DNA of 32,000 nt, taken from Candidatus Electronema aureum (GTDB lineage Bacteria; Desulfobacterota; Desulfobulbia; Desulfobulbales; Desulfobulbaceae). The stretch is taken from NCBI GenBank assembly GCA_004284765.1, contig NQJD01000030.1, positions 1 through 32,000 of the forward strand. The letters are read 5' to 3'. Each line of letters opens with the position of its first letter. Position 1 is the first letter of the stretch. Positions 1 to 30,016 of the stretch are shown piece by piece. The notes under the pieces are model-generated. The model ran no database searches. It saw only the letters and a program-made list of their open reading frames with translations, and was not told the origin of the DNA. The position numbers were made by a program, and so were the translations under genes.

Positions 1-3
1 CTT

Positions 4-376
4 TCATAAGAACGGCGTTTGGCTGGCGGGCATTCGCCCTCTGAAAACTGAGACCAAGTCGGAAGTCAACTTTTTCAATATTATATTGTTTTTAATGGTA
101 AATTCAATGTGTTTTTTAGGGAGCCGTCCGCTTTGCCACTCATGGTTCACCATTACCGATAATCTCCCGCCAGTTGTCAATGCTGGCAAGCAGCTCGGCA
201 TCAATATTTTTTATTCGGTTTAAGGCTTCACCGATGATTTCAAATTGCCGCTCGACCGCAGATTGCGTTTTTATATCCGCTGCATATTCGGATTCGACCA
301 TGTTTTCAGTGAACTGCAAAATCAGCCGACAGGCATTGGCGGCATCTTCAAGGCAGACGGCAGGATCATGAGGCAT
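4..376 (-). pseudogene. hepT: HepT-like HEPN (DUF86) toxin of an MntA/HepT pair, apparently disrupted at the catalytic motif
   Basis: ORF 140..376 has a normal HepT-like N-terminal and central part (..AVERQFEIIGEALNRI..DNWREIIG). It stops exactly where the Rx4-6H motif should begin. The C-terminal remainder (MVNHEW..HIEFTIKNNIILKKL) continues in a different frame (ORF 4..204), and no Arg is left in front of the His. There is an 11-nt overlap with the upstream mntA stop region, as is typical for this operon type. Confidence 0.55.
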
Positions 377-662
377 AAACAGTCTTTATGTTTGAAAAGA
401 TGTATTCTTTGATGCGGCTGTTTTTGAGGGATTTTGGCATAACAAGATCAACTGGACGAGAGAACAGCTCTTCCAGCTCAAACTTCACGTTCATATATCT
501 TTTGATTCCATCTACTGCACCCTCAAGCTCGATGAGGAAATCAACATCGCTGCTCTCGTTAAAATGCTCAGTGAGTGCGCTGCCAAAAATGCTCAGACTT
601 TTAACCCTATATTTCTGGCAGATACTGATAATTTTCCGCTGATAATTTTCGATATCTAGCAT
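366..662 (-). CDS. mntA: MntA-type minimal nucleotidyltransferase (antitoxin partner of HepT)
   Basis: Pol-beta-fold NTase signature FGSALTEHFNESSDVDFLIE (GS..DxD). About 98 aa from the ATG at 662; the track start at 677 is a TTG. Sits directly upstream of and overlapping the HEPN gene. Confidence 0.8.
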   Translation of the reverse strand: MLDIENYQRKIISICQKYRVKSLSIFGSALTEHFNESSDVDFLIELEGAVDGIKRYMNVKFELEELFSRPVDLVMPKSLKNSRIKEYIFSNIKTVYAS

Positions 663-799
663 GTTGTTATCTTGCAAAAGGCGCTTGATTGCCGCGCCAT
701 AAAGATCATGATTTGTTTGACACGGCAGACATCAGCTTGCAACTGCAAACGGCCCGTTACCGATGCGGTAATAGGGCAGGTTCGCCCGCCCTTGGAGGA

Positions 800-1054
800 T
801 TATACGTTGACTCCTCTACTCCACAGCTCAAATTCACTGAGATCAATTGCATCGTTCCAAGAGACAGCCGAGCCTCCCTGTTCCACGCGGACAGATTTGA
901 AGAAGGCAGAGTTTTTCAATGGCGCAAACATCTCCTTTTTAAGCAAGGGAGTTACGTCATATTGTCTCTTTTCGTTATTATCAAACTCAACGATCAGGAT
1001 ATGATTGTCAGTCGCCTTGACTGAGCGCACTTTCGGGCAGTTCATAGCAATCAT
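800..1054 (-). CDS. DUF2442-like small protein
   Basis: 84 aa. The pattern ..V..A.....L.VEF.NGE.R..D..PLL....F.PL....F..V.V..GG.AV.W...IDL is what I recognise as DUF2442. Its ATG overlaps the TGA of the upstream gene (ATGA at 1051..1054). Confidence 0.65.
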   Translation of the reverse strand: MIAMNCPKVRSVKATDNHILIVEFDNNEKRQYDVTPLLKKEMFAPLKNSAFFKSVRVEQGGSAVSWNDAIDLSEFELWSRGVNV

Positions 1055-1299
1055 GCCAATGGTGGAAGTTTAAGAAATTGCTGCTCGTTCCACATGTTCA
1101 TAAGTTCTTTTTGATGAAGATTTGCCCATTCAACAACTAATTTCTCCGCTCTGCTCGGTAAATCACCTTCAATCATCTCAAGTGTTTCCATGTTGAATAA
1201 TCCGAGATATTCACCATACACGGCATGGAAGTGCGGCGGCGGATGGTCGCCAAAAAATAATTTGATGACAATGCCGTAGAATCGAGCAATTTCAGGCAT
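1051..1299 (-). CDS. DUF4160-like small protein
   Basis: 82 aa. The N-terminus MPEIARFYGIVIKLFFGDHPPPHFHAVYGEY is the characteristic DUF4160 start (..F.GI.I.my..DH.PPHFHa.Y.e). ATG at 1299 with AAAGGAA 7 nt upstream. Confidence 0.7.
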   Translation of the reverse strand: MPEIARFYGIVIKLFFGDHPPPHFHAVYGEYLGLFNMETLEMIEGDLPSRAEKLVVEWANLHQKELMNMWNEQQFLKLPPLA

Positions 1300-1448
1300 G
1301 ACGTATTCCTTTAACTTTCCTCGGATGCTCTTGCCGGACTGTCAGCCCAGTTAATTTCTGTGCTCGGAGCAGCAGCCCCCTGCTGCTTTAGCAGAATAAA
1401 ACGGTTCATTTTTCTCTGCTCTTTTCCTACTTGTTTGAGACAAGCACA

Positions 1449-2726
1449 TCATCCTTTCTTCAAGTTGCATATCCTATGACAGAGTTTTGCATTTTCAGGA
1501 ATAGTTTTTCCTCCAATCCAATAACGTGTATCATGGTCCAGTACAGCATCATCAATAAGAACGATCTTGTTCCCGCAAAGGGCGCATGTCGGATCAGCTT
1601 CAAAAATTTCCTTCTTGAGTTTTTTAGAGAAAGTTCGCTTAGTATCCTGCGACTGACTCTGAGACATTATCTCATCGAGTCTTTCGTACCACGTTTTAAA
1701 CGTATATGTCAGTCGAGTTGATTCGCCAGTTGCGCGTCTTATTCTGTCCACCCAAACCGCATCAGATTTAATCAAATCTAAATATCCTTCATATATACTG
1801 TCTGCTTTTTGAGTGATCTGCCCCAGATCATATTTTACAAACGAAGTTGCTACAACTTGAAAAATTGCCGCATTCGGCTTGCGTGACCATTCTCCAAAGC
1901 TGTATTTTCCTGGCTTTGTAATATCACTCTTTAGCCGGAAAGCATTCTCTCCAAAAACAGTCAGGCATCCTCGCATAGATTTTTCAAATACTGCTCGATA
2001 CTCTGACACCTTTGATTCAGGAGCATTTTTATAAGTTTCCAAAAATTCATTCAGAAAACTTTTAAGACCTGCTGTGCATTTCAAGTAAGTCCGTTCATAA
2101 AATGCGAGAAAACGCAAAACAAATGCTCTGTCCTGCATACGTTTGCCAAAATTTTTTTGATTTATCGTCCTGATGAAATTAGAATTCTCGCTTAATTCCT
2201 TGATGCACTCGTTAAGTGTCCCCCGAAATATACAATTTCTTACTTCCATATCGTTTAGCTTGATACCCCCTGTATTCAACCTTTGGAATACGATAAAATG
2301 AATATCACTATCACTATCACAAAGCTCAAACGAACGTAATATAGAGTCTTCAATCTTGTTTTGAATCTCAACCGGAAGATCAGAAAATAATTTTCCGTGA
2401 TACTCTTTTAATCTATCAAGTTTTTGCAGATTATATTTACCGTCTAAATAATTAAAAACGGAAGTGAGCCGCTGTAATCCATCAATAACTTCATATTTTC
2501 CGTTATCATTCTTTGCTAAATAAATCACCGGAACAGGTATATCAAGCAAGAAAGACTCGATAAGCCTTGATGCTCTTACATTATCCCAGACATAATTTCG
2601 CTGCCATTCTGGGTCAATAATTAGTCTTCCATTCTTATACCATCGATGTAGCCTCAAAGAGGCTTCTGTCTGCCTTCTCAAGGATAACTTTCTTGAATCT
2701 CGAAATTGGATTAAGTTCTCCTTCAT
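1449..2726 (-). CDS. DUF262 (ParB-like/GmrSD N-terminal domain) fused to a C-terminal HNH nuclease; type IV-restriction-like or defence nuclease
   Basis: N-terminal IDPEWQRNYVWD ... VIDGLQRLTS matches the (Q/F)QR..vW and DGQQR motifs of DUF262. C-terminal CALCGNKIVLIDDAVLDHDTRYWIGGKTIPENAKLCHRICNLKKG is an HNH (CxxC..DH..N..CHxxCN) finger. GAAGGA lies 4 nt upstream of the ATG. Confidence 0.8.
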   Translation of the reverse strand: MKENLIQFRDSRKLSLRRQTEASLRLHRWYKNGRLIIDPEWQRNYVWDNVRASRLIESFLLDIPVPVIYLAKNDNGKYEVIDGLQRLTSVFNYLDGKYNLQKLDRLKEYHGKLFSDLPVEIQNKIEDSILRSFELCDSDSDIHFIVFQRLNTGGIKLNDMEVRNCIFRGTLNECIKELSENSNFIRTINQKNFGKRMQDRAFVLRFLAFYERTYLKCTAGLKSFLNEFLETYKNAPESKVSEYRAVFEKSMRGCLTVFGENAFRLKSDITKPGKYSFGEWSRKPNAAIFQVVATSFVKYDLGQITQKADSIYEGYLDLIKSDAVWVDRIRRATGESTRLTYTFKTWYERLDEIMSQSQSQDTKRTFSKKLKKEIFEADPTCALCGNKIVLIDDAVLDHDTRYWIGGKTIPENAKLCHRICNLKKG

Positions 2727-3264
2727 CCATTCCTTCTGCTATATCGCTGTCGTCACCTTCTTGATCAGCGCATTGTTCTTCTTGATCAAAAACCAATTCG
2801 TATTCATTCAGATTTCCGTTTTTGTTCATAGTGCCCACCATGTTGTTGAATATTTCTTGTTAAGATATAAGCTAAACCAGCAGGTTTATCTCCTCACATA
2901 CGCATCATTGGCGACAATCACCCTGCGCCCAGCCAGCCGCTCATGATGATGCCCACAGAGCCGACATGAAACAACCCGCCCACCTCGTTGTAGGCGGGTG
3001 CTTGATACGGACAACAGTATCTACATGCGGTATCCTTATTCTCAAGGGTACCCACTTGGGGTGCCTTGCAGTATTCCAGATAGCGCAGAAGCCACCCAGG
3101 CCGGAGATTATCTACTCACAACCTGATGCAGCTCATCCTAAAGAGCTGTGCAGGCTTTGTCAAGGAAATGCTTGGGGTTGCTTGTCACAATGAAGGCGGC
3201 GCGGCGAAAGGATGGCAGGGGATGCGGGGCTGATGTCTTCGGCCACAGTGCGTGTGTTGTAGGG

Positions 3265-7223: not shown

Positions 7224-7323
7224 ATTGGCACAACCGCCTGCGGGACAAGCCTGCCGCCAGCGTTCAGCAGAGCCGGATTCGTGGCCGAAAACAACTGATT
7301 TACAGCTCAAGGGAAAAAGAGAG

Positions 7324-10300
7324 ATGGGAAAAGACATGACCAGAAGCATTACCAGACAGCTTCTGACCGAGACCGCTGAGACCGTATTGACCCGCCGTTA
7401 TTACCTCAAAGACGGCCAAGGCAACATGCTGGAGAACTGGGAGTCGCTTTGCCGCCGGGTTGCGGATGCTGTGGCTGGGGTTGACCGGGGGCAGGAGGAC
7501 TACGAGACCTTGCGCGAGCAGTTCTTTACTATGATTTATCGGCTTGATTTTCTGCCCAACTCTCCTTGCCTGATGAACGCGGGTACTGATCTCGGCCAGC
7601 TCTCGGCCTGCTTTGTCCTGCCGGTCGAGGACTCAATGGACGGCATTTTTACCTCCATTCATAACGGTGCGCTGGTGCATAAAACCGGCGGCGGCACAGG
7701 CTATTCCTTCTCCCGGCTGCGGCCTAAAAATTCATCGGTGCGCTCGACCCAAGGCGTGGCCTCCGGGCCGCTTAGTTTTGCTGCCGTCTTTGATGCAGCC
7801 ACCGAGACCATCAAGCAGGGCGGCAAGCGACGCGGAGCCAACATGGGCATCCTGCGGGTGGATCATCCTGACATCATGGATTTCATCACAGCCAAGCAGG
7901 ATCAGAGCAAGTTCACTAACTTCAACTTCTCCGTAGCGATCACCGACAAGTTCATGGAGGCGGCGAAGAACAATCAGGAATATGACCTGATCGACCCTTC
8001 CAACCGCAAGGTGGTCTGCCGGATGAATGCGGCCAAAGTCTTTGATAAAATTGTTGATCTGGCTTGGCACAACGGCGAGCCAGGCGTGCTGTTCATTGAC
8101 GCGGCCAACCGCGCCAACGCCACCCCGCAGCTCGGTGAGTTTGAGGCGACGAACCCATGCATTGTCGGCGACACCTTGGTGGCGGTGGCGGACGGGCGCG
8201 GCGCAGTGGCCATCCGCCAGCTTGCCGAGGAAGGCAAGGATATTCCGGTCTTCTGCCGCAACAGCAAAGGCGGCGCTTCGGTGCGGATGATGCGCAATCC
8301 CCGTATCACCGGATATGGCAAGCAGATTGTGAAAGTCACCCTCGATGATGGCAACAGCGTGAGAGTGACAGAAAATCACCGCTTCGTGCTTTCTGACGGC
8401 AGAGTGAAAGAGGCGAAAGAGCTTGTTTCCGGCGACAGTCTGAGTCTGATGACTAAGCGTGAGGCCCCGTTCGAGAAAATATTCTCACAGTCTAACAGCA
8501 GGTCTCAAACTTATTGCTGGTTATCGACAACAGACAAACCAAATTGGCAGCCTGAGCATCGTCTGATTGCTAATTTTTATCATCGGCATCAGACCGGCAA
8601 AAATTTGGACTGGAATCAAGTAGTGCATCATCGCGATTACAACGGCCTCAACAACAATCCGGCCAATCTTGAGGTGATGAGCAAAGAGGCGCATTACCGG
8701 CTGCATTCGGAAGACCGCAAGGGAGACAAGAATCCGATGCGGCGTTTCCCGGAAAAGAACTGGATGAACGATCCGGTCAAGCAGCAGGAACTCCGCATCA
8801 GGCATCATGTTGGCGCAAAACGAAGTCAGGCAACTAAAGAGCGGATTGGTGCCGCGACAAAACTTCGCTTCCAAGATGAAGCATACCGTCTTCGTCATAC
8901 AGAAGCGGTGCAAGAAGGAGTTGCTCTTCACCAAGATAATTTTTTACAGGGACTGCAACAGCGCGCTCAACAGAAGCTGGCGGAATGTCAGTCCATGACT
9001 GACTTGCGTTGCTTCCTTGATGGCAACAGTGTCATGGTTGAACGCAGATGTGAACATTGCAGTGAATTATACACAGTATCTTGGAGCAAACGCGAACAGT
9101 CTTTCTGTTCAAAGCCCTGCTATGTTGTTTGGCATAACAGCAACCAAGCCGTCCGTCAGAAAATTACAGATGGCATCCATGCCACGTATGCTGCCAAGGC
9201 AGAGCAGACCCGTCGGCTCCAAGTAGAATGCTTTCTGAATTTGAAATTTGCGCAAGGCCAGACCCCGCTGAAAAAAGACTGGGAGAGCCGCTGCGCCGAG
9301 CAGGGCATTCCCAAGCGACTGGGCACGGAATTTGGCTTTCCGACCTATCATGCCTTGCAGGAAGCCGCACAGACCTTCAACCACCGGGTTGTGTCGGTTG
9401 AGCGCGACGGCATCGAGGATGTGTACAACGGCACTGTTGACGAATTCCATAACTTTTATATCGGTCATTTCCTTGGTGAAATTGATGGAGATAAAAGTTA
9501 CAGCTATATCAATAATTTGCAGTGCGGTGAGCAGTGGCTTTTACCAATGGAATCCTGCAATTTAGGCTCAATCAACCTCGGCCAATACGTCAAAGACGGT
9601 GCGGTCGATTTTACTCGCTTGCAACAGACGGTGCGTACCTCCGTCCGTTTCTTAGACAACGTGATTGACTGCAACCGCTTCCCGATCCCAGAAATCGGTG
9701 AGATGACTCGCAAGACCCGAAAAATTGGATTAGGAATCATGGGCCTGCACGACATGCTCATTCAGTTAGAGCTGTCCTACGGCGACGAGGACGGTCGAGC
9801 CGCTTCAGCCGAGGTCATGCAATTCATTCGTGATGAGGCGGAGGCCGCCTCCATTGCGCTGGCAAAGCTGAAAGGGCCGTTCCCGGCTTGGGACCCGCAG
9901 CACAACCACTACCCCGCCCGTCGCAACGCGGCTCTGACCTCTATTCAACCCACTGGCACGGTTTCGATGATTGCCGACTGCGCTTCCGGCTGCGAGCCGT
10001 ATTTTTCGGTGGTGACAGAGAAAAACGTCATGGACGGCGACCGCTTCCTGATGGTCAACAAGCATTTTGAGACCGTTGCTAAACGGGAAGGTTTTTTCTC
10101 CGAAGTCTTGTTGAAAAAGGTGGCGCAAAGCGGCACCGTGCTGGAGCAGGAAGAAATCCCAGAAAAATGGCAGCGTATCTTCCGCGCCGCTCAAGACATC
10201 AGTCCGGTGGAGCATATTCTGATGCAGGGCGCACTTCAGGCCAGCGGGGTGGATTCCTCCATCAGTAAGACCATTAACCTTCCGTCTTCAGCCAGCAAAG

Positions 10301-10872
10301 AAGATGTGCGCGAGTCGTACTTGCTCGGCTTTGAGTTAGGCTGCAAAGGGTTGACCGTGTATCGCGACGGCTCGCGAGAAGGCCAAGTTCTCAGCACGGC
10401 GGCTTCAACTGCCAAGCAGACCGCGACGGTTTCCTCGCAGGGTGAAACGCAAAAACAAGAGTTGCCGGATGTCCTCAGTGCCAAGCGCTACCGGCTGAAG
10501 GATGCCAATGGCGACCGCATTTATATCATCGTCTGCTTTGATGATAATGAAAATCCGATGGAGGTTTTTGCTAAATTTCCATTCGATAACCGGCTTGATC
10601 TGAAAGATAAATCCACGATGTGGACAACCACGTGCAGGTTAGTTTCTTTAGCTCTGCGCTGCCAGATACCGATGGAGGAAATTATCCGCCAGCTGGACCG
10701 TTCCAGCGGCCACATGCTCGATTTACCTGCCCAGCTTGGTAGGTTGCTGAAATCCTTCATGGCCGGAACCCAGAAGGGCTTTACTTCCTCTTGTCCAGAA
10801 TGCCCAGGCACCTTAGTTTTTACTGAGGGCTGCGAGGTCTGCCGCGACTGCGGCTATTCTCGGTGCTCGTAG
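7324..10872 (+). CDS. nrdJ: Class II (adenosylcobalamin-dependent) ribonucleotide reductase NrdJ, intein-containing, with a C-terminal Cys-rich zinc-finger tail
   Basis: Extein motifs: LPNSPCLMNAG, FVLPVEDSM, EATNP|CGEQWLLPMESCNLGSINL (split by the intein), SIQPTGT, KTINLP, GCKGLTVYRDGSR. The C-terminus is CPECPGTLVFTEGCEVCRDCGYSRCS. Start is at ATG 7324 (or 7336) after GGGAAAAAGAGAG; the 33 codons from 7225 look like non-coding read-through. Confidence 0.9.
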   Translation: MGKDMTRSITRQLLTETAETVLTRRYYLKDGQGNMLENWESLCRRVADAVAGVDRGQEDYETLREQFFTMIYRLDFLPNSPCLMNAGTDLGQLSACFVLPVEDSMDGIFTSIHNGALVHKTGGGTGYSFSRLRPKNSSVRSTQGVASGPLSFAAVFDAATETIKQGGKRRGANMGILRVDHPDIMDFITAKQDQSKFTNFNFSVAITDKFMEAAKNNQEYDLIDPSNRKVVCRMNAAKVFDKIVDLAWHNGEPGVLFIDAANRANATPQLGEFEATNPCIVGDTLVAVADGRGAVAIRQLAEEGKDIPVFCRNSKGGASVRMMRNPRITGYGKQIVKVTLDDGNSVRVTENHRFVLSDGRVKEAKELVSGDSLSLMTKREAPFEKIFSQSNSRSQTYCWLSTTDKPNWQPEHRLIANFYHRHQTGKNLDWNQVVHHRDYNGLNNNPANLEVMSKEAHYRLHSEDRKGDKNPMRRFPEKNWMNDPVKQQELRIRHHVGAKRSQATKERIGAATKLRFQDEAYRLRHTEAVQEGVALHQDNFLQGLQQRAQQKLAECQSMTDLRCFLDGNSVMVERRCEHCSELYTVSWSKREQSFCSKPCYVVWHNSNQAVRQKITDGIHATYAAKAEQTRRLQVECFLNLKFAQGQTPLKKDWESRCAEQGIPKRLGTEFGFPTYHALQEAAQTFNHRVVSVERDGIEDVYNGTVDEFHNFYIGHFLGEIDGDKSYSYINNLQCGEQWLLPMESCNLGSINLGQYVKDGAVDFTRLQQTVRTSVRFLDNVIDCNRFPIPEIGEMTRKTRKIGLGIMGLHDMLIQLELSYGDEDGRAASAEVMQFIRDEAEAASIALAKLKGPFPAWDPQHNHYPARRNAALTSIQPTGTVSMIADCASGCEPYFSVVTEKNVMDGDRFLMVNKHFETVAKREGFFSEVLLKKVAQSGTVLEQEEIPEKWQRIFRAAQDISPVEHILMQGALQASGVDSSISKTINLPSSASKEDVRESYLLGFELGCKGLTVYRDGSREGQVLSTAASTAKQTATVSSQGETQKQELPDVLSAKRYRLKDANGDRIYIIVCFDDNENPMEVFAKFPFDNRLDLKDKSTMWTTTCRLVSLALRCQIPMEEIIRQLDRSSGHMLDLPAQLGRLLKSFMAGTQKGFTSSCPECPGTLVFTEGCEVCRDCGYSRCS
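8158..9522 (+). mobile_element. Intein (455 aa) with an HNH-type homing-endonuclease module, inserted before the radical Cys of NrdJ
   Basis: Begins CIVGDTLVAV (block A), then VTENHRF (TxxH, block B). An HNH motif VVHHRDYNGLNNNPANLEVMSKEAHYRLH lies at 8620-8706. Block-F-like DVYNGTVDEFHNFYIG follows. It ends ..SYINNLQ, followed by CGEQ. Removing 8158..9522 restores the universal NrdJ motif ATNPCGEQ. Confidence 0.85.
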
Positions 10873-23428: not shown

Positions 23429-26656
<3,228 letters not shown>

Positions 26657-26676
26657 GGCGAACTGTGCGAAAATAT

Positions 26677-26868
26677 TTAAGCTGACAGGCAGCGGTCCTT
26701 TTGAAAGGGAGAATGTTCTTTTGCTGGCTGCGAACGGCGCATTCCGGGCGAAAAACGGCCTGTTCCCGGCTGCGAATGGCCCGTTTGAGGCTGGCAATGA
26801 CCCATTGCCAACTGACAACGTCGCAGTGCCAGTGTCAAATGCGGCATTTCCAGCCGGGAACGCCTCAT
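26677..26868 (-). CDS. Candidate 63-aa spacer ORF between carA and carB (may not be translated)
   Basis: A true ATG 9 nt after the carA stop, with GGAG 12 nt upstream. Stops 20 nt before the carB ATG. The sequence is only the repeat array read in a third frame (GHxQPxT heptads). Confidence 0.2.
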
Positions 26869-26874
26869 TGCTGC
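26707..26874. repeat. Eight perfectly phased 21-bp tandem repeat units in the carA-carB spacer
   Basis: An invariant AAYG core occurs at 26712, 26733, 26754, 26775, 26796, 26817, 26838 and 26859, exactly 21 nt apart with no indels. Approximate consensus: ctGnnAAYGnCnCatTnCcnG. Each unit has the dyad AAY-N5-RTT; for example AAATGC-g-GCATTT spans 26837-26849 (core AAYG at 26838) and CAATG-acc-CATTG spans 26795-26807 (core at 26796). Confidence 0.9.
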
Positions 26875-26876
26875 TG

Positions 26877-27986
26877 TTATCTCCGCCCTTCCATCAAGCC
26901 GATGAAGCGGTCGAAGAGGTAAACGGCATCGTGCGGGCCGGGCGCGTGTTCCGGGTGATACTGGACGGAAAAGGCGGGGTATTCTTTGTGCCGCATCCCC
27001 TCAAGGCTGCCGTCGTTGAGGTTGATGTGCGTGACTTCGACGCTGGCGGGCAGGCTTTGCGGGTCAACGCAGAAGCCGTGGTTCTGCGAGGTGATCTCCA
27101 CTTTGCCAGTCTGCAAATCCTTCACCGGCTGATTGCCGCCGCGATGTCCGAACTTCAGCTTGAAGGTTGTGCCGCCATACGCCAAGCCGAGCATCTGATG
27201 GCCGAGGCAGATGCCGAAGATCGGCTTCTTGCCGAGCAGGGCGCGGATGTTCTCGACCACGCCTTCCACGCCCGCTGGGTCGCCGGGGCCGTTGGAGAGA
27301 AACACGCCGTCCGGGTTCAGGGCCAAAACCTCTGCTGCCGGAGTTTTCGCAGGCACGACCAGAACGCTGCACCCCTTTTCGGCCAGAATGCGCAGCTGAT
27401 TGTATTTGATGCCGAAGTCATAAGCCACGACCTTGAACCTGCCGCCCGCCGGGAAGGTGTGACCTGCGGCCGGGCCACCGTTGCTCCAGGTGTAGGAACG
27501 GGCGGTGCTCACGTTTGCCACCATGTCTTGACCAACCAAGCCTGCCCAGTTCCGCGCTTTTTCCACTAATGAAGCCTCGCTGAGGTCTTCGGTGGAGATG
27601 ACCGCCTTCATCGCCCCGCGCTTGCGGATGATCCGGGTCAGCATCCGGGTGTCGAAACCCTCGATGCCGAGCACCCCGAACTTGCAGAGGAAGTCGGCCA
27701 AGGTGCCGCTGGCGCGGTAGTTGCTCGGCACGGCCTGATATTCGCGCATCAGGAAGGCGCGGGGATGCGCGGCGGCGGATTCCATGTCCTCCGGGTTGAT
27801 GCCGTAGTTGCCGATCAGCGGGTAGGTCATCGTCACCATCTGGCCGGTGTAGGAGGGGTCGGTCAGGATTTCCTGATAGCCGCTCATGCTGGTGTTGAAC
27901 ACGATTTCCCCGGCTGCCTCGCCCGCCCCGGTGAAGGAGCGGCCAGTCAGCACAGTGCCGTCTTCAAGCGCGATTAGTGCTTTCAT
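26877..27986 (-). CDS. carA: Carbamoyl-phosphate synthase small (glutaminase) subunit
   Basis: [19 protein letters not shown]-type N-terminus. Class I GATase motifs GICLGHQ and HPE. Confidence 0.95.
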
Positions 27987-28009
27987 ATAAATTGTTTTTC
28001 AGATTGAGA

Positions 28010-28243
28010 TCACCCGCTGTTGCGCTGCAAAGCAAAATGGCGCGGCGCAGTGTCAGTCGGATGCGATGATTTGTCAGCGGAGGGGGGATGAATTGGAGGC
28101 GCAACAACGTGACAGCCGGATTGAATATGTTCTGCTTCTGACTTCTTCAAGTCTTCATAAATTGCCCGCAAGTCATAATTGAATTTAGCCGCGTGCGCTT
28201 CCCGGTTTTTTCTGACTTCTTGAAGAATTTCATCAGTCGGCAT
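28010..28243 (-). CDS. Small protein, putative partner (antitoxin-like) of the upstream PIN-like gene
   Basis: 77 aa. AGGAGAAG SD. Overlaps the PIN-like gene by 11 nt. The N-terminal EILQEVRKNREAHAAKFNYDLRAIYEDLKK resembles small proteins I have seen next to this PIN family; this is my recollection, not a search result. Confidence 0.5.
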   Translation of the reverse strand: MPTDEILQEVRKNREAHAAKFNYDLRAIYEDLKKSEAEHIQSGCHVVAPPIHPPSADKSSHPTDTAPRHFALQRNSG

Positions 28244-28715
28244 GGTCTTCTCCTAACAGTTCTTCAGGGGTGCAGATGAAAGGAAGAAACAGGTCTATTT
28301 CGTTCAAGTATGAGGAGATATTTCTCTGGATTTCAGGATTCGCGATGTGTTTGCAATTCCATGTCAGCAGATAGTCAACCTTATGCACTGTTGCAATGGC
28401 AATATGCAGGCCATCCTCCGCCGCTTTTGCTGGAATTATTCCTCGTCCCAGCAACGCAGCGGTTATCTGAAAGGCTTCTTCGGTGATCAATAACAATGAA
28501 AAAGACTTGGCAATCTCCAAACGTTTCAGTGCTGCTTTAGGATCCCCAGCAGCGCATTCTCGTAATACAGCCTCTGAAACCAGCAAGTCATATGCAAATC
28601 GTTTTTCCCACCATGCCGCAGTGATCTGCTGATGCGCGGCACCGATAATAGTTTTGCTTGGTCTTGCTGTCAGATAGCTGATGACAGAGGTTTCAAGATA
28701 AACTCTGCGCTTCAT
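28233..28715 (-). CDS. PIN-like (VapC-family-like) nuclease domain protein
   Basis: 160 aa. VYLETSVISYL at the N-terminus, where this family usually has D-T-S. Later AEDGLHIAIATVHKVDYLLTWNCKHI (D..H.A.A....D.L.TWN..H). Its ATG overlaps the waaA TGA (ATGA). Confidence 0.6.
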   Translation of the reverse strand: MKRRVYLETSVISYLTARPSKTIIGAAHQQITAAWWEKRFAYDLLVSEAVLRECAAGDPKAALKRLEIAKSFSLLLITEEAFQITAALLGRGIIPAKAAEDGLHIAIATVHKVDYLLTWNCKHIANPEIQRNISSYLNEIDLFLPFICTPEELLGEDHAD

Positions 28716-30016
28716 TGATTTTCTCTGATTTCCCGCATCACCAATTCCGCCTGCCGCTGCGCCGAACCCTGCTGGGATGCTGCCAACCGCTCCGCCGCCT
28801 GGCAGGTCTGCGCATACAGCCGCTCATCGCGCAGCAGGGCGGACAGGCAGTCTGCGAGACCTTCAGCGTGTTGTGCCTGAAAACCCGCACCCGCTGTCAG
28901 CACCAAATCGACCGCATCCTGATAATCCTGCATAAACGGCCCAAAGCAGACCGGCCTGCGCCAGCGCACCGGCTCCATGATGTTGTGGCCGCCTTTGTTG
29001 ACCAAGCTGCCGCCGCAGAAGCTGATATTCGCTGCTGCGTAGAGATCGGCCAGCTCGCCAAGCGAATCCAGCAGCACGATGTCTTTGTTTCGGCCCTTGG
29101 CAGCGCAATCGGAGAACAGCTCGTATTCCAGCCCGACTTCATAGAGCAGCCGCCTGACCTCATCCAGCCGCTTCAAGTGGCGCGGCGCGATGATCCAGAG
29201 CAGGCCGTCCGCTGTTTCCGCCCGCAGGCGGCGGTAAACCGGCAGGAGCAGCTCCTCCTCGCCCGTGCGGGTGGAGCCGCAGATGAAGACCTTTTTCCCG
29301 CCCGGCTTGAGCAGCCGCCGGTATTTCTCCCGCATCGCTCCGGCATCAGCGGCGGGCAGGTCGTATTTCAGATTGCCGCAGACTTGCACCTGCTCCGCCC
29401 CTAGCTGTCGGAAGCGTTCGCCGTCTTCTTCACGGATGACTCCAATTACGGCAAAGCCTTTGAGCAGATCAGCCATGAAGCCGGGCAGCCGCCGGTATCT
29501 GCGGAACGAACGCTCTGAGAGCCTGCCGTTGAGCAGAAGCAGCGGAATCCCGGCCCGGCTGGTCTCGCGCAGCATGGTCGGCCACAGCTCAGTTTCCAAG
29601 CAGACATAGGCATCAGGCCGCACCGCCCGCAGCGCGGCGGTCACAGCTTGGGGCGTGTCTATCGGAGCCAGCTCGCAGCACACGGTTTCCGGCAGGCGGG
29701 CGCGGGCCGCGTCCCTGCCCTGCCTGGTCATGGCACTTAAAAAAAAATGGCAGCCGGGAATCTGCGCTGTCAGCGCGGCGATCAAAGGGCGGGCGGCCTG
29801 CACCTCGCCCACCGAGGCAGCGTGAATCCAGATGAGCGGGCCGGTGCGGTCGAAATTGCCTTGATATCTGCCCAGACGCTGCTCTGTCTCCCAGCCGGGC
29901 GCGGTGATGTTCAAAACAGGCAGAACAGCCGGAAGCAGGGCATGAACAGCCGTGCCAAGTATGCGGTAGAGAACATGCAGCATGACGGTCTTGCGGTCTC
30001 GGCTGTCTTTTTTCAT
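28712..30016 (-). CDS. waaA: 3-deoxy-D-manno-octulosonic acid (Kdo) transferase
   Basis: IWIHAASVGEVQAARPLI, the GT30 family pattern, and C-terminal GGSL..KGGHN..EP. The start could instead be the ATG at 29983 (MLHVLYRIL). Confidence 0.88.
   Translation of the reverse strand: MKKDSRDRKTVMLHVLYRILGTAVHALLPAVLPVLNITAPGWETEQRLGRYQGNFDRTGPLIWIHAASVGEVQAARPLIAALTAQIPGCHFFLSAMTRQGRDAARARLPETVCCELAPIDTPQAVTAALRAVRPDAYVCLETELWPTMLRETSRAGIPLLLLNGRLSERSFRRYRRLPGFMADLLKGFAVIGVIREEDGERFRQLGAEQVQVCGNLKYDLPAADAGAMREKYRRLLKPGGKKVFICGSTRTGEEELLLPVYRRLRAETADGLLWIIAPRHLKRLDEVRRLLYEVGLEYELFSDCAAKGRNKDIVLLDSLGELADLYAAANISFCGGSLVNKGGHNIMEPVRWRRPVCFGPFMQDYQDAVDLVLTAGAGFQAQHAEGLADCLSALLRDERLYAQTCQAAERLAASQQGSAQRQAELVMREIRENQ

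Follow-up and report, generated by a model that had tools for sequence, protein, structure and literature searches.

The REP/BIME elements of Enterobacteria and Pseudomonas and the SMAG elements of Stenotrophomonas are short, imperfect extragenic palindromes of 20-40 nucleotides (nt), often clustered and specific to a lineage. Recognition by RAYT transposases, gyrase and IHF keeps their sequence conserved, and they often lie between cistrons or convergent genes and, in some operons, stabilise the mRNA or guide its processing. Another arrangement is known from the sopC centromere of F, an array of 12 x 43 bp in which each unit carries an inverted repeat, and in Neisseria the intergenic region between carA and carB is reportedly variable and filled with repeats. 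The subject here is an array of 21-nt palindromic units in the 220-bp spacer (26657-26876) between carA and carB, the genes of carbamoyl-phosphate synthase, within a 32-kb stretch of chromosome (the window) of Candidatus Electronema aureum, a freshwater cable bacterium of the Desulfobulbaceae. It is moderately probable that this array is a lineage-specific minisatellite belonging to a previously undescribed family of 21-bp palindromic extragenic repeats of cable bacteria, REP/BIME-like in character and a passive passenger of the operon.

The closest analogy is provided by REP/BIME. The likeness lies in the imperfectly palindromic unit of about 20-40 nt, which takes a perfect 9+3+9 form at a second locus, L180 (L- and P-numbers are the labels of fetched loci and proteins), and in the extragenic position, between carA and carB in the one case and between convergent genes in the other. 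The differences are that the units of the array stand strictly head to tail with a fixed 21-nt period, and that most units of the car array no longer form stable hairpins; stable, maintained stem-loops are not the rule in L180 either, where they are formed by only five of 12 units. As in Neisseria, the same gene pair is split by a lineage-variable, non-coding repeat insertion, and the two cases together suggest that this junction tolerates insertions. Unlike the neisserial region, the E. aureum DNA has no Neisseria uptake sequence, its spacer and those of its relatives measure 0.2-0.35 kb rather than kilobases, and a single 21-bp family takes the place of a mosaic of neisserial repeats. Plasmid iterons and sopC resemble the array in being phased tandem repeats, each with a dyad site for a dimeric protein; the car array differs in being chromosomal and part of a biosynthetic operon, with no rep or par genes near it, and neither the unit pair nor the L180 array had a match among viral contigs, plasmids and phages.

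Dispersed intergenic short tandem repeats have also been described in sediment bacteria and proposed as regulator-binding sites, namely the multicopy heptanucleotide and octanucleotide repeats of Geobacter metallireducens (PMC2700814) and the TAACTGA direct repeats of Beggiatoaceae, which are also found in Cyanobacteria and Bacteroidetes (PMC4679880). These are direct repeats of 7-9 nt, sometimes arranged in two opposed blocks, whereas the unit of the car array is a 21-nt self-palindrome with a 4+4 core.

The repeat unit and its conserved core

The array is real, perfectly phased and built of palindromic 21-nt units. Offsets of 21, 42 and 63 nt give the spacer a self-identity of 0.48, 0.53 and 0.47, respectively, compared with about 0.25 at other lags, and among 5000 dinucleotide-preserving shuffles none attained the value seen at lag 21 or the highest value over lags 4-69. 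This makes the spacer the strongest cryptic periodicity of the window (z = 8.2). Tandem Repeats Finder made no call at the spacer, because the units are only about 50-60% alike. When unit n is taken to span 26876-21(n-1) down to 26856-21(n-1), units 1 to 7 conform well, unit 8 does so weakly and unit 9 (26688-26708) is degenerate. The initial annotation had described eight units filling the spacer, with AAYG cores at exact 21-nt steps and no indel. The eight good cores were found just where it had placed them, from 26712 to 26859 on the + strand; to complete the spacer, the degenerate ninth unit and a non-repeat tail of 31 nt have to be added.

Pooling 39 units from three genomes gives the sense-strand consensus ctGGmAAYG-nnn-CRTTsCCag, and the full consensus of the family is CTGGCAATG-NNN-CATTGCCAG. 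The two-unit pattern AAYG-N3-CRTT-N10-AAYG-N3-CRTT matches only within the array in the whole window, with 0 matches expected. Conservation is concentrated in a few columns: C15 is retained in 38 of the 39 units and A8, A9 and T18 in 36-37, G11 and T17 follow with 32-34, and the consensus base of neighbouring columns is found in only 20-31. Columns 10 and 16 are Y and R, and the three central and ten linker columns are variable. The dyad that had been seen in each unit is borne out, as 70% of cells pair about column 13 at slide 0 versus 35-44% when the arms are slid, and the conserved stem amounts to 4 bp with a 3-nt loop.

Orthologous arrays are present in two relatives, and their units are collinear with those of the window. 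L167, an Electronema genome with a CarA 93% identical to that of the window, has 15 units in a spacer of 346 bp, and L168 (CarA 90% identical) has 15 units in 333 bp. All length differences among the three car arrays are multiples of 21 nt (net -126 nt in the window), and the sole 1-nt indel falls in the non-repeat tail of L168. Perfect phase had been thought to signify that all units face one side of the helix; since length changes come only as whole units, the phase is explained without helical-face selection. Head-to-tail units within the 10-100-bp range, numbering 9, 15 and 15 in the three genomes and changing by whole units, are what defines a minisatellite or variable number tandem repeat. 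The copy number does vary between species; four E. aureum assemblies are identical, so variation within the species was not seen.

The 4+4-bp dyad core evolves about three times more slowly than the linkers and the fourfold sites of carA. Between L167 and L168, substitutions per site come to 0.09 in the core, 0.15 in the centre, 0.27 in the linkers and 0.30 at carA fourfold sites; the core is slower than the fourfold rate with p = 1e-5 and slower than the linkers with p = 0.002, and the linker rate is indistinguishable from neutral. The slower core is also seen in the comparison of the window with L168 (p = 0.02).

Distribution among relatives and a second locus

For comparison, one genome of each species was scanned and the nearest CarA clusters were looked up. 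As had been stated at the outset, the two car genes usually lie close together: most spacers among the approximately 118 loci examined measure 0-90 bp. Relatives with 84-88% CarA identity have no array and have spacers of 23-57 bp that are homologous to the last ~23 nt of the window spacer, which thus correspond to the short ancestral spacer of the outgroups. The array is likewise absent from other Desulfobulbaceae, with spacers of 16-90 bp, and from E. halotolerans, with an unrelated spacer of 158 bp. A metagenome scan with CarA found no relative above 78%. The car array is thus a derived, lineage-restricted insertion directly behind carA. The E. halotolerans spacer (L179 3111-3268) is itself G+C-rich, with repeated GGGCTGCCC-type motifs and a hairpin followed by a T-run (GGCAGGCACGGGGGCCTGTCCTGCC...TTTTTT) that resembles an intrinsic terminator between carA and carB.

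The CAG CAG CAA TGA that follows the TAA of carA is the relic of an older carA terminus, which is still in use in L168, where the protein ends in ...GQQQQ, and the first repeat core, AATGAGGCGTT, overlaps this older TGA. E. aureum, L167 and UBA5173 instead use a TAA or TAG stop 9 nt upstream of the TGA used by L168, and the CarA of outgroups ends in ...MAQQG. At the other border, a GCTGCCTGTCAGC element (26681-26693) straddles the junction of array and tail and is common to all array-bearing genomes and UBA5173.

The last-named lineage, a sister to the array-bearing genomes with a CarA of 93% identity, has five units of about 22-24 bp at the array site. These are built on a different palindrome, GAGTCATAC/GTATGACTC, which occurs in no other fetched locus. 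The distal spacer tail (AAAAGAtCGCTGCCTGTCAGC...) is nevertheless shared with the array-bearing genomes in spite of the different palindrome, and the UBA5173 ancestor therefore probably had the insertion and later swapped the repeat. Different palindromes at one site with a shared tail mark the carA-carB site as a sink for palindromic repeats. The UBA5173 half-sites TCATAC/GTATGA match the half-sites of the E. coli NikR operator; the spacing differs, and the match is probably a coincidence.

The same family was found at a locus that has nothing to do with car. A full HMMER search with the heptad-frame translation of the window array returned nine weak matches, mostly heptad-repeat open reading frames (ORFs), and the best of them, P0152, is an ORF called across L180 1381-1632. 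This DNA consists of 12 in-phase 21-nt units of the car-array family, five of which are perfect palindromes of the CTGGCAATG-NNN-CATTGCCAG type with stems of 8-9 bp. The array comes after the intrinsic terminator of a gene of the DVU0772 family, with a convergent GGDEF gene on its other side; the nearest named homologues of the DVU0772-family gene are all from cable bacteria (Electrothrix or Electronema). The cluster mates of P0152 keep the 12 heptads, with middle units that are different or reshuffled. The 21-bp unit family is therefore not car-specific, since in another cable bacterium it also occupies a stretch between convergent genes that has no connection with car.

A special link of the repeat to car, implied by the initial annotation, thus did not survive: besides L180, E. 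halotolerans and the nearer outgroups do without the array, and UBA5173 has another palindrome. The contrary possibility it had raised, of a dispersed family unconnected with car, fared better in part, for a second, unrelated locus does exist, but in a different genome from the first. In Electronema sp. TJ, no array was seen within the approximately 140-170 bp after the DVU0772 gene, where both contigs end. When all open frames were translated into one chimeric query, its only homologue was a real repeat protein that is unrelated. Above the level of shuffles, the sequences flanking the car and L180 arrays have nothing in common, and a mobile element with defined ends or a target duplication was rejected on that ground.

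The metagenomic heptad 'proteins' P0149, P0153, P0155 and P0157, with the heptads ENRSLPS, GKATFPL, SNEPLDx and ASNASLQ, also matched the array translation; judging by back-translation, some of them may likewise be 21-nt palindromic DNA arrays (e.g., GCAATGCCTCATTGC for SNASL). Such arrays give long stop-free frames that are called as 'heptad-repeat proteins', as in the case of P0152, and this is a warning for annotation. No paper tying cable bacteria to intergenic tandem repeats was found in the literature; the 'genomic repeats' of the closed-genome paper on cable bacteria are insertion sequences.

Explanations of the array

The favoured reading, that of a passive REP/BIME-like minisatellite, starts from what the comparisons show. 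In the Ca. Electronema aureum group the array stands immediately after the carA stop, with the short ancestral spacer surviving at its 3' end. It grows and shrinks by whole units only, as slipped-strand or in-register unequal recombination would bring about. The outer arms of the palindrome have decayed at an approximately neutral rate, and the 4+4-bp core AAYG/CRTT is retained; the core would be kept through recognition of the duplex DNA by a putative two-fold symmetric, sequence-specific protein. It is the symmetry without covariation that points to a protein reading duplex DNA, and candidates for the binder are a nucleoid or topology protein of the host and, by analogy with REP/BIME, an enzyme specific to the element. 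The family is thus seen as probably bound by a symmetric protein and as not specific to car. A row of sites for a dimeric protein had been envisaged from the start; the symmetric, sequence-specific and constrained core agrees with that idea, while the 12-unit L180 array removes any special connection with car. The car array would be carried passively in the carAB transcript and tolerated rather than needed for carAB regulation, and there is no evidence that it has a role in the control of carbamoyl-phosphate synthase.

Several observations weigh against this account. Among the window ORFs scanned with Pfam and NCBIfam there is no candidate binding protein, nor any RAYT-like gene of the IS200/IS605-like kind with which REP/BIME elements are linked. 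No further copy of the repeat is present in the 32-kb window, and 1.09 Mb of fetched loci contain none besides the car arrays and L180; the two known loci belong to different genomes. The array has been kept across lineages that are 30% apart at fourfold sites, and in UBA5173 it was replaced rather than lost; both could mean that the locus needs some array. As for the constraint on the core, the closest pair, the window and L167, shows no difference between core and linkers (p = 0.8) and is uninformative, and four of the six core columns are A/T, so mutation bias could be part of the signal; a comparison restricted to G/C gives p = 0.06.

If the favoured reading is true, the locus would be a clean, datable case of an extragenic palindrome family that was born, amplified, is decaying and has been replaced within an essential operon. 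The host is an uncultured, multicellular and electrically conductive bacterium, in which the ancestral state (a spacer of 23-29 bp) can be compared with several derived ones, and the 11-bp motif would be a defined bait for a putative DNA-binding protein of cable bacteria. No long-standing question of carbamoyl-phosphate synthase regulation is opened by it.

Much of what is seen would also be left by a neutral, decaying minisatellite, in which a palindromic seed beside the carA stop was amplified by slippage and now drifts with no binder or function, its core being conserved by mutation bias or by amplification that favours units with intact cores (molecular drive). Whole-unit indels, outer arms evolving at the neutral rate, the absence of the array from sister species and the unrelated short tandem repeats at the same spacer in other lineages are all in keeping with such drift, as are the marginal G/C-only test and the lack of a difference in the closest pair. 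The retention of C15, A8, A9 and T18 in nearly all units next to columns that are far less conserved is not, and neither is a core rate of one third of the fourfold rate, or the fact that the same core is conserved in an independent array of a different lineage, at a different locus. Pure drift is on this account unlikely.

A more ambitious proposal would have the AAYG-N3-CRTT units serve as operators of a cable-bacterial symmetric protein that coats 190-315 bp in a filament or wrapped complex and so uncouples the expression of carB from that of carA. On this view the 23-bp array of UBA5173 would have co-evolved as a replacement, and the L180 array would be another target of the same regulator. 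In the array, AA/TT steps recur every 9 and 12 bp, about one helical turn. This proposal is considered distinctly unlikely.

An operator array specific to car would be composed of sites for an arginine- or pyrimidine-responsive symmetric regulator that polymerises over the spacer and acts as a roadblock or controls an internal carB promoter. ArgR operators are the model, as they consist of paired 18-bp ARG boxes lying 3 bp apart (PMC6245113), with palindromic boxes at 21-bp centres on one helix face, the pairs being bound by ArgR-like hexamers, and a tie to carAB in E. coli. The analogy is attractive because the period of the array, exactly 21 nt, equals this centre-to-centre spacing; a constrained core that is symmetric and sequence-specific without covariation, a self-identity no lower at lag 42 than at lag 21, as would be the case if the boxes were repeated in pairs, and the location inside the car operon also speak for it. 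It fails on consensus, position and distribution. The ARG box TGAAT-N4-ATTCA is matched at best in 5-7 of 10 positions at N4, and 8/10 is reached only with the wrong half-site spacing of N5 or N6. There are 9-15 boxes rather than two, and they lie between carA and carB and not at an arginine-regulated promoter; a promoter and terminator consensus scan of 26300-28400 gave no promoter-like or terminator-like site inside the spacer. The same units stand between convergent non-car genes in L180, where the array is upstream of no gene, carAB runs without an array in E. halotolerans and all outgroups, and the different palindrome of UBA5173 has a non-helical period of 22-24 bp. A car-specific operator is thus very unlikely. 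A sigma-54 promoter (TGGCAC-N5-TTGC) was also considered and rejected, as TGGCA...TTGCC fits only at N7, with a maximum of 8/10 at N5.

As the array lies within the operon and is presumably transcribed, the units could fold into hairpins in the carAB mRNA, or the whole array into a single long and imperfect one, and there stabilise the carA message, guide processing or tune carB translation. The young units of L180 do form hairpins of -10 to -13 kcal/mol, column pair 10/16 shows U-G 13 times versus C-A five times, and the spacer's antisense strand gives a more stable fold than its shuffles (z = -3.1). The sense strand, however, reaches a z of only -1.9, and the unit hairpins of the three car arrays do not exceed their shuffles in stability (-4.0 vs -3.3 +/- 2.4 kcal/mol), with a strong hairpin in unit 4 only. 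Covariation is absent beyond column composition, as the score was reached by 72 of 500 column shuffles. When partners are shuffled within columns, 68.6 +/- 1.4% still pair, and the observed 70% was reached by 65 of 500 shuffles; since partner shuffles pair nearly as well, the dyad is a property of the column consensus and not of single units. Mismatches of the G-U and A-C types are balanced overall (35 vs 39), and the conserved stem has only 4 bp, with a loop of 3 nt. Rfam 15 gave no relevant match to the spacer even at E <= 10, and the window-wide scan found only tRNA-Phe. The car array is not hairpin-driven, and an RNA element is accordingly a highly doubtful explanation. The published 'carA motif' is a different thing, located upstream of carA in Polynucleobacter (PMC8632094).

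Lastly, the array had been credited with coding-like features. It is indeed stop-free in four of six frames, including the heptads in the carB frame, as expected from column frequencies: sampling these gives a probability of being open of 0.61-0.86 for the two heptad frames and 0.17-0.36 for the frame with an ATG in every unit, and open frames are unremarkable because column composition alone predicts them. At its head, the heptad frame (N-x-x-F/L-P-x-G) lacks a start codon (ATG, GTG or TTG). It runs into a stop ahead of carB in both L167 and L168 and is out of the carB frame in L168, so its continuity with carB in the window is accidental. The 50 substitutions between orthologous units of L167 and L168 are distributed 18/14/18 over codon positions 1, 2 and 3, and the codon-position comparison of aligned spacers that had been suggested thus shows no periodicity; the within-array variability (position 3 > 1 > 2) that had been read as a sign of coding follows from which dyad columns are conserved. 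No ORF was annotated by gene callers in the spacer of any of the assemblies, and the sequence relatives of the heptad translation comprise only repeat proteins unrelated to it and ORFs predicted on similar DNA arrays.

In a variant of the coding idea, the ATG frame would be a 'bridge' ORF that begins on the old carA stop, in an ATGA overlap, and runs to a TAA lying 21 nt ahead of carB, ferrying ribosomes over the insertion and keeping carA-carB translational coupling. The unit length is divisible by 3, the window has this frame open between 26868 and 26677 and L167 has it open over 105 codons, the terminal TAA is the same in all three genomes, and the single stop in L168 is followed at once by an ATG (TGAATG). 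No Shine-Dalgarno sequence is recognisable in the 20 nt ahead of the carB ATG (window 26657-26680, and the equivalent positions of L005-L030); a carB start of this kind is shared by Electronema and most Desulfobulbaceae examined. The same frames are, however, open in the L180 array between convergent genes, where coupling is impossible, and with the openness not significant and the substitutions without codon periodicity, the coding claim is refuted and translation in either form is exceedingly improbable. An N-terminal extension of CarB was ruled out by the stop or frameshift in relatives, and a +1 frameshift extension of CarA or a CarA-CarB fusion by the lack of a slippery context and the closure of the heptad frame before carB in L167 and L168.

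Other spacers and the surrounding genes

The coordinates of the locus and of the spacers compared with it are collected in the table. The CarA of the window is identical in sequence to Ca. Electronema aureum CAK8718225.1, and the E. aureum CarA is present on NCBI record OW818638.1 (2.94 Mb). With this identity, and with the uptake sequence missing, an origin of the DNA in Neisseria was rejected.

Features of the carA-carB locus in the window, and repeat-bearing carA-carB spacers of other loci (positions are those of the window or of the locus named)
Feature	Position	Strand	Description	Support
carA	26877-27986	-	carbamoyl-phosphate synthase small subunit, 369 aa	TIGR01368, 490 bits; NCBIfam equivalog
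carB	23429-26656	-	carbamoyl-phosphate synthase large subunit, 1075 aa, start MPKRTDI (canonical)	NF003671, 1703 bits; NCBIfam equivalog
carA end	26865-26879	-	TAA stop 26877-26879, then CAG CAG CAA TGA	
Repeat array	26688-26876	-	nine head-to-tail 21-nt units, directly after the carA stop	
Non-repeat tail of spacer	26657-26687	-	31 nt, TGTCAGCTTAAATATTTTCGCACAGTTCGCC, reaching the carB ATG	
UBA5173 array	L005 5121-5235 = L165/L166 2621-2735		perfect 18-bp palindrome GAGTCATAC/GTATGACTC	
Heptamer spacer	L037 1190-1330			
Heptamer spacer	L052 2317-2393			
Heptamer spacer	L079 5107-5263			
Heptamer spacer	L036 5116-5219			
Octamer spacer	L055 5086-5252			
Heptamer spacer	L076 5137-5286			
Heptamer spacer	L085 1236-1340			
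Further heptamer spacers	L142, L139, L114, L066, L050/L051			

Tandem heptamers (octamers in L055) were seen in the carA-carB spacers of many unrelated bacteria, including Nitrospirae, Firmicutes/Clostridia, Desulfuromonadales, Desulfatiglans, Poribacteria and other Desulfobulbaceae. Often a set of direct repeats is succeeded by a set of their reverse complements, e.g., (GGAAATT)x4 ... (AATTTCT)x4, and it is these spacers that the Geobacter metallireducens arrays resemble. The strongest lag-7 window of the locus falls within the carA-carB spacer in 10 of 46 loci, compared with 1.1 expected by length. Similar arrays are seen between other genes of these loci as well, so relative to the remaining non-coding DNA the spacers are enriched only about 2-fold. 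Rfam gave no family match on 12 of the heptamer-spacer loci.

Upstream of carA, between it and waaA (28712-30016), the window has two overlapping small ORFs (28010-28715, - strand). One encodes 160 aa with a weak match to PIN_3 (E = 0.04), the other 77 aa with no family, and together they look like a toxin-antitoxin pair. The same spot is occupied in relatives by a BrnT-like gene with an RHH gene (L169), by DUF4145 with a 67-aa ORF (L165) or by nothing (L170-L177, L179), and because relatives hold other modules or none there, the junction upstream of carA is also an insertion hot spot. A regulator of the array encoded next door by these two ORFs was rejected, as the modules differ among relatives and do not co-vary with the array.

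Elsewhere in the window, the large subunit of ribonucleotide reductase (7225-10872, + strand) is split by an intein that bears an HNH endonuclease domain, as indicated by matches to Pfam Intein_splicing and HNH_3 within Ribonuc_red_lgC. The first 3000 nt (1-3000) have a G+C content of only 0.38-0.44, compared with about 0.53 elsewhere, and include a GmrSD-type restriction endonuclease gene (1449-2726, - strand); this region may be an acquired defence island.

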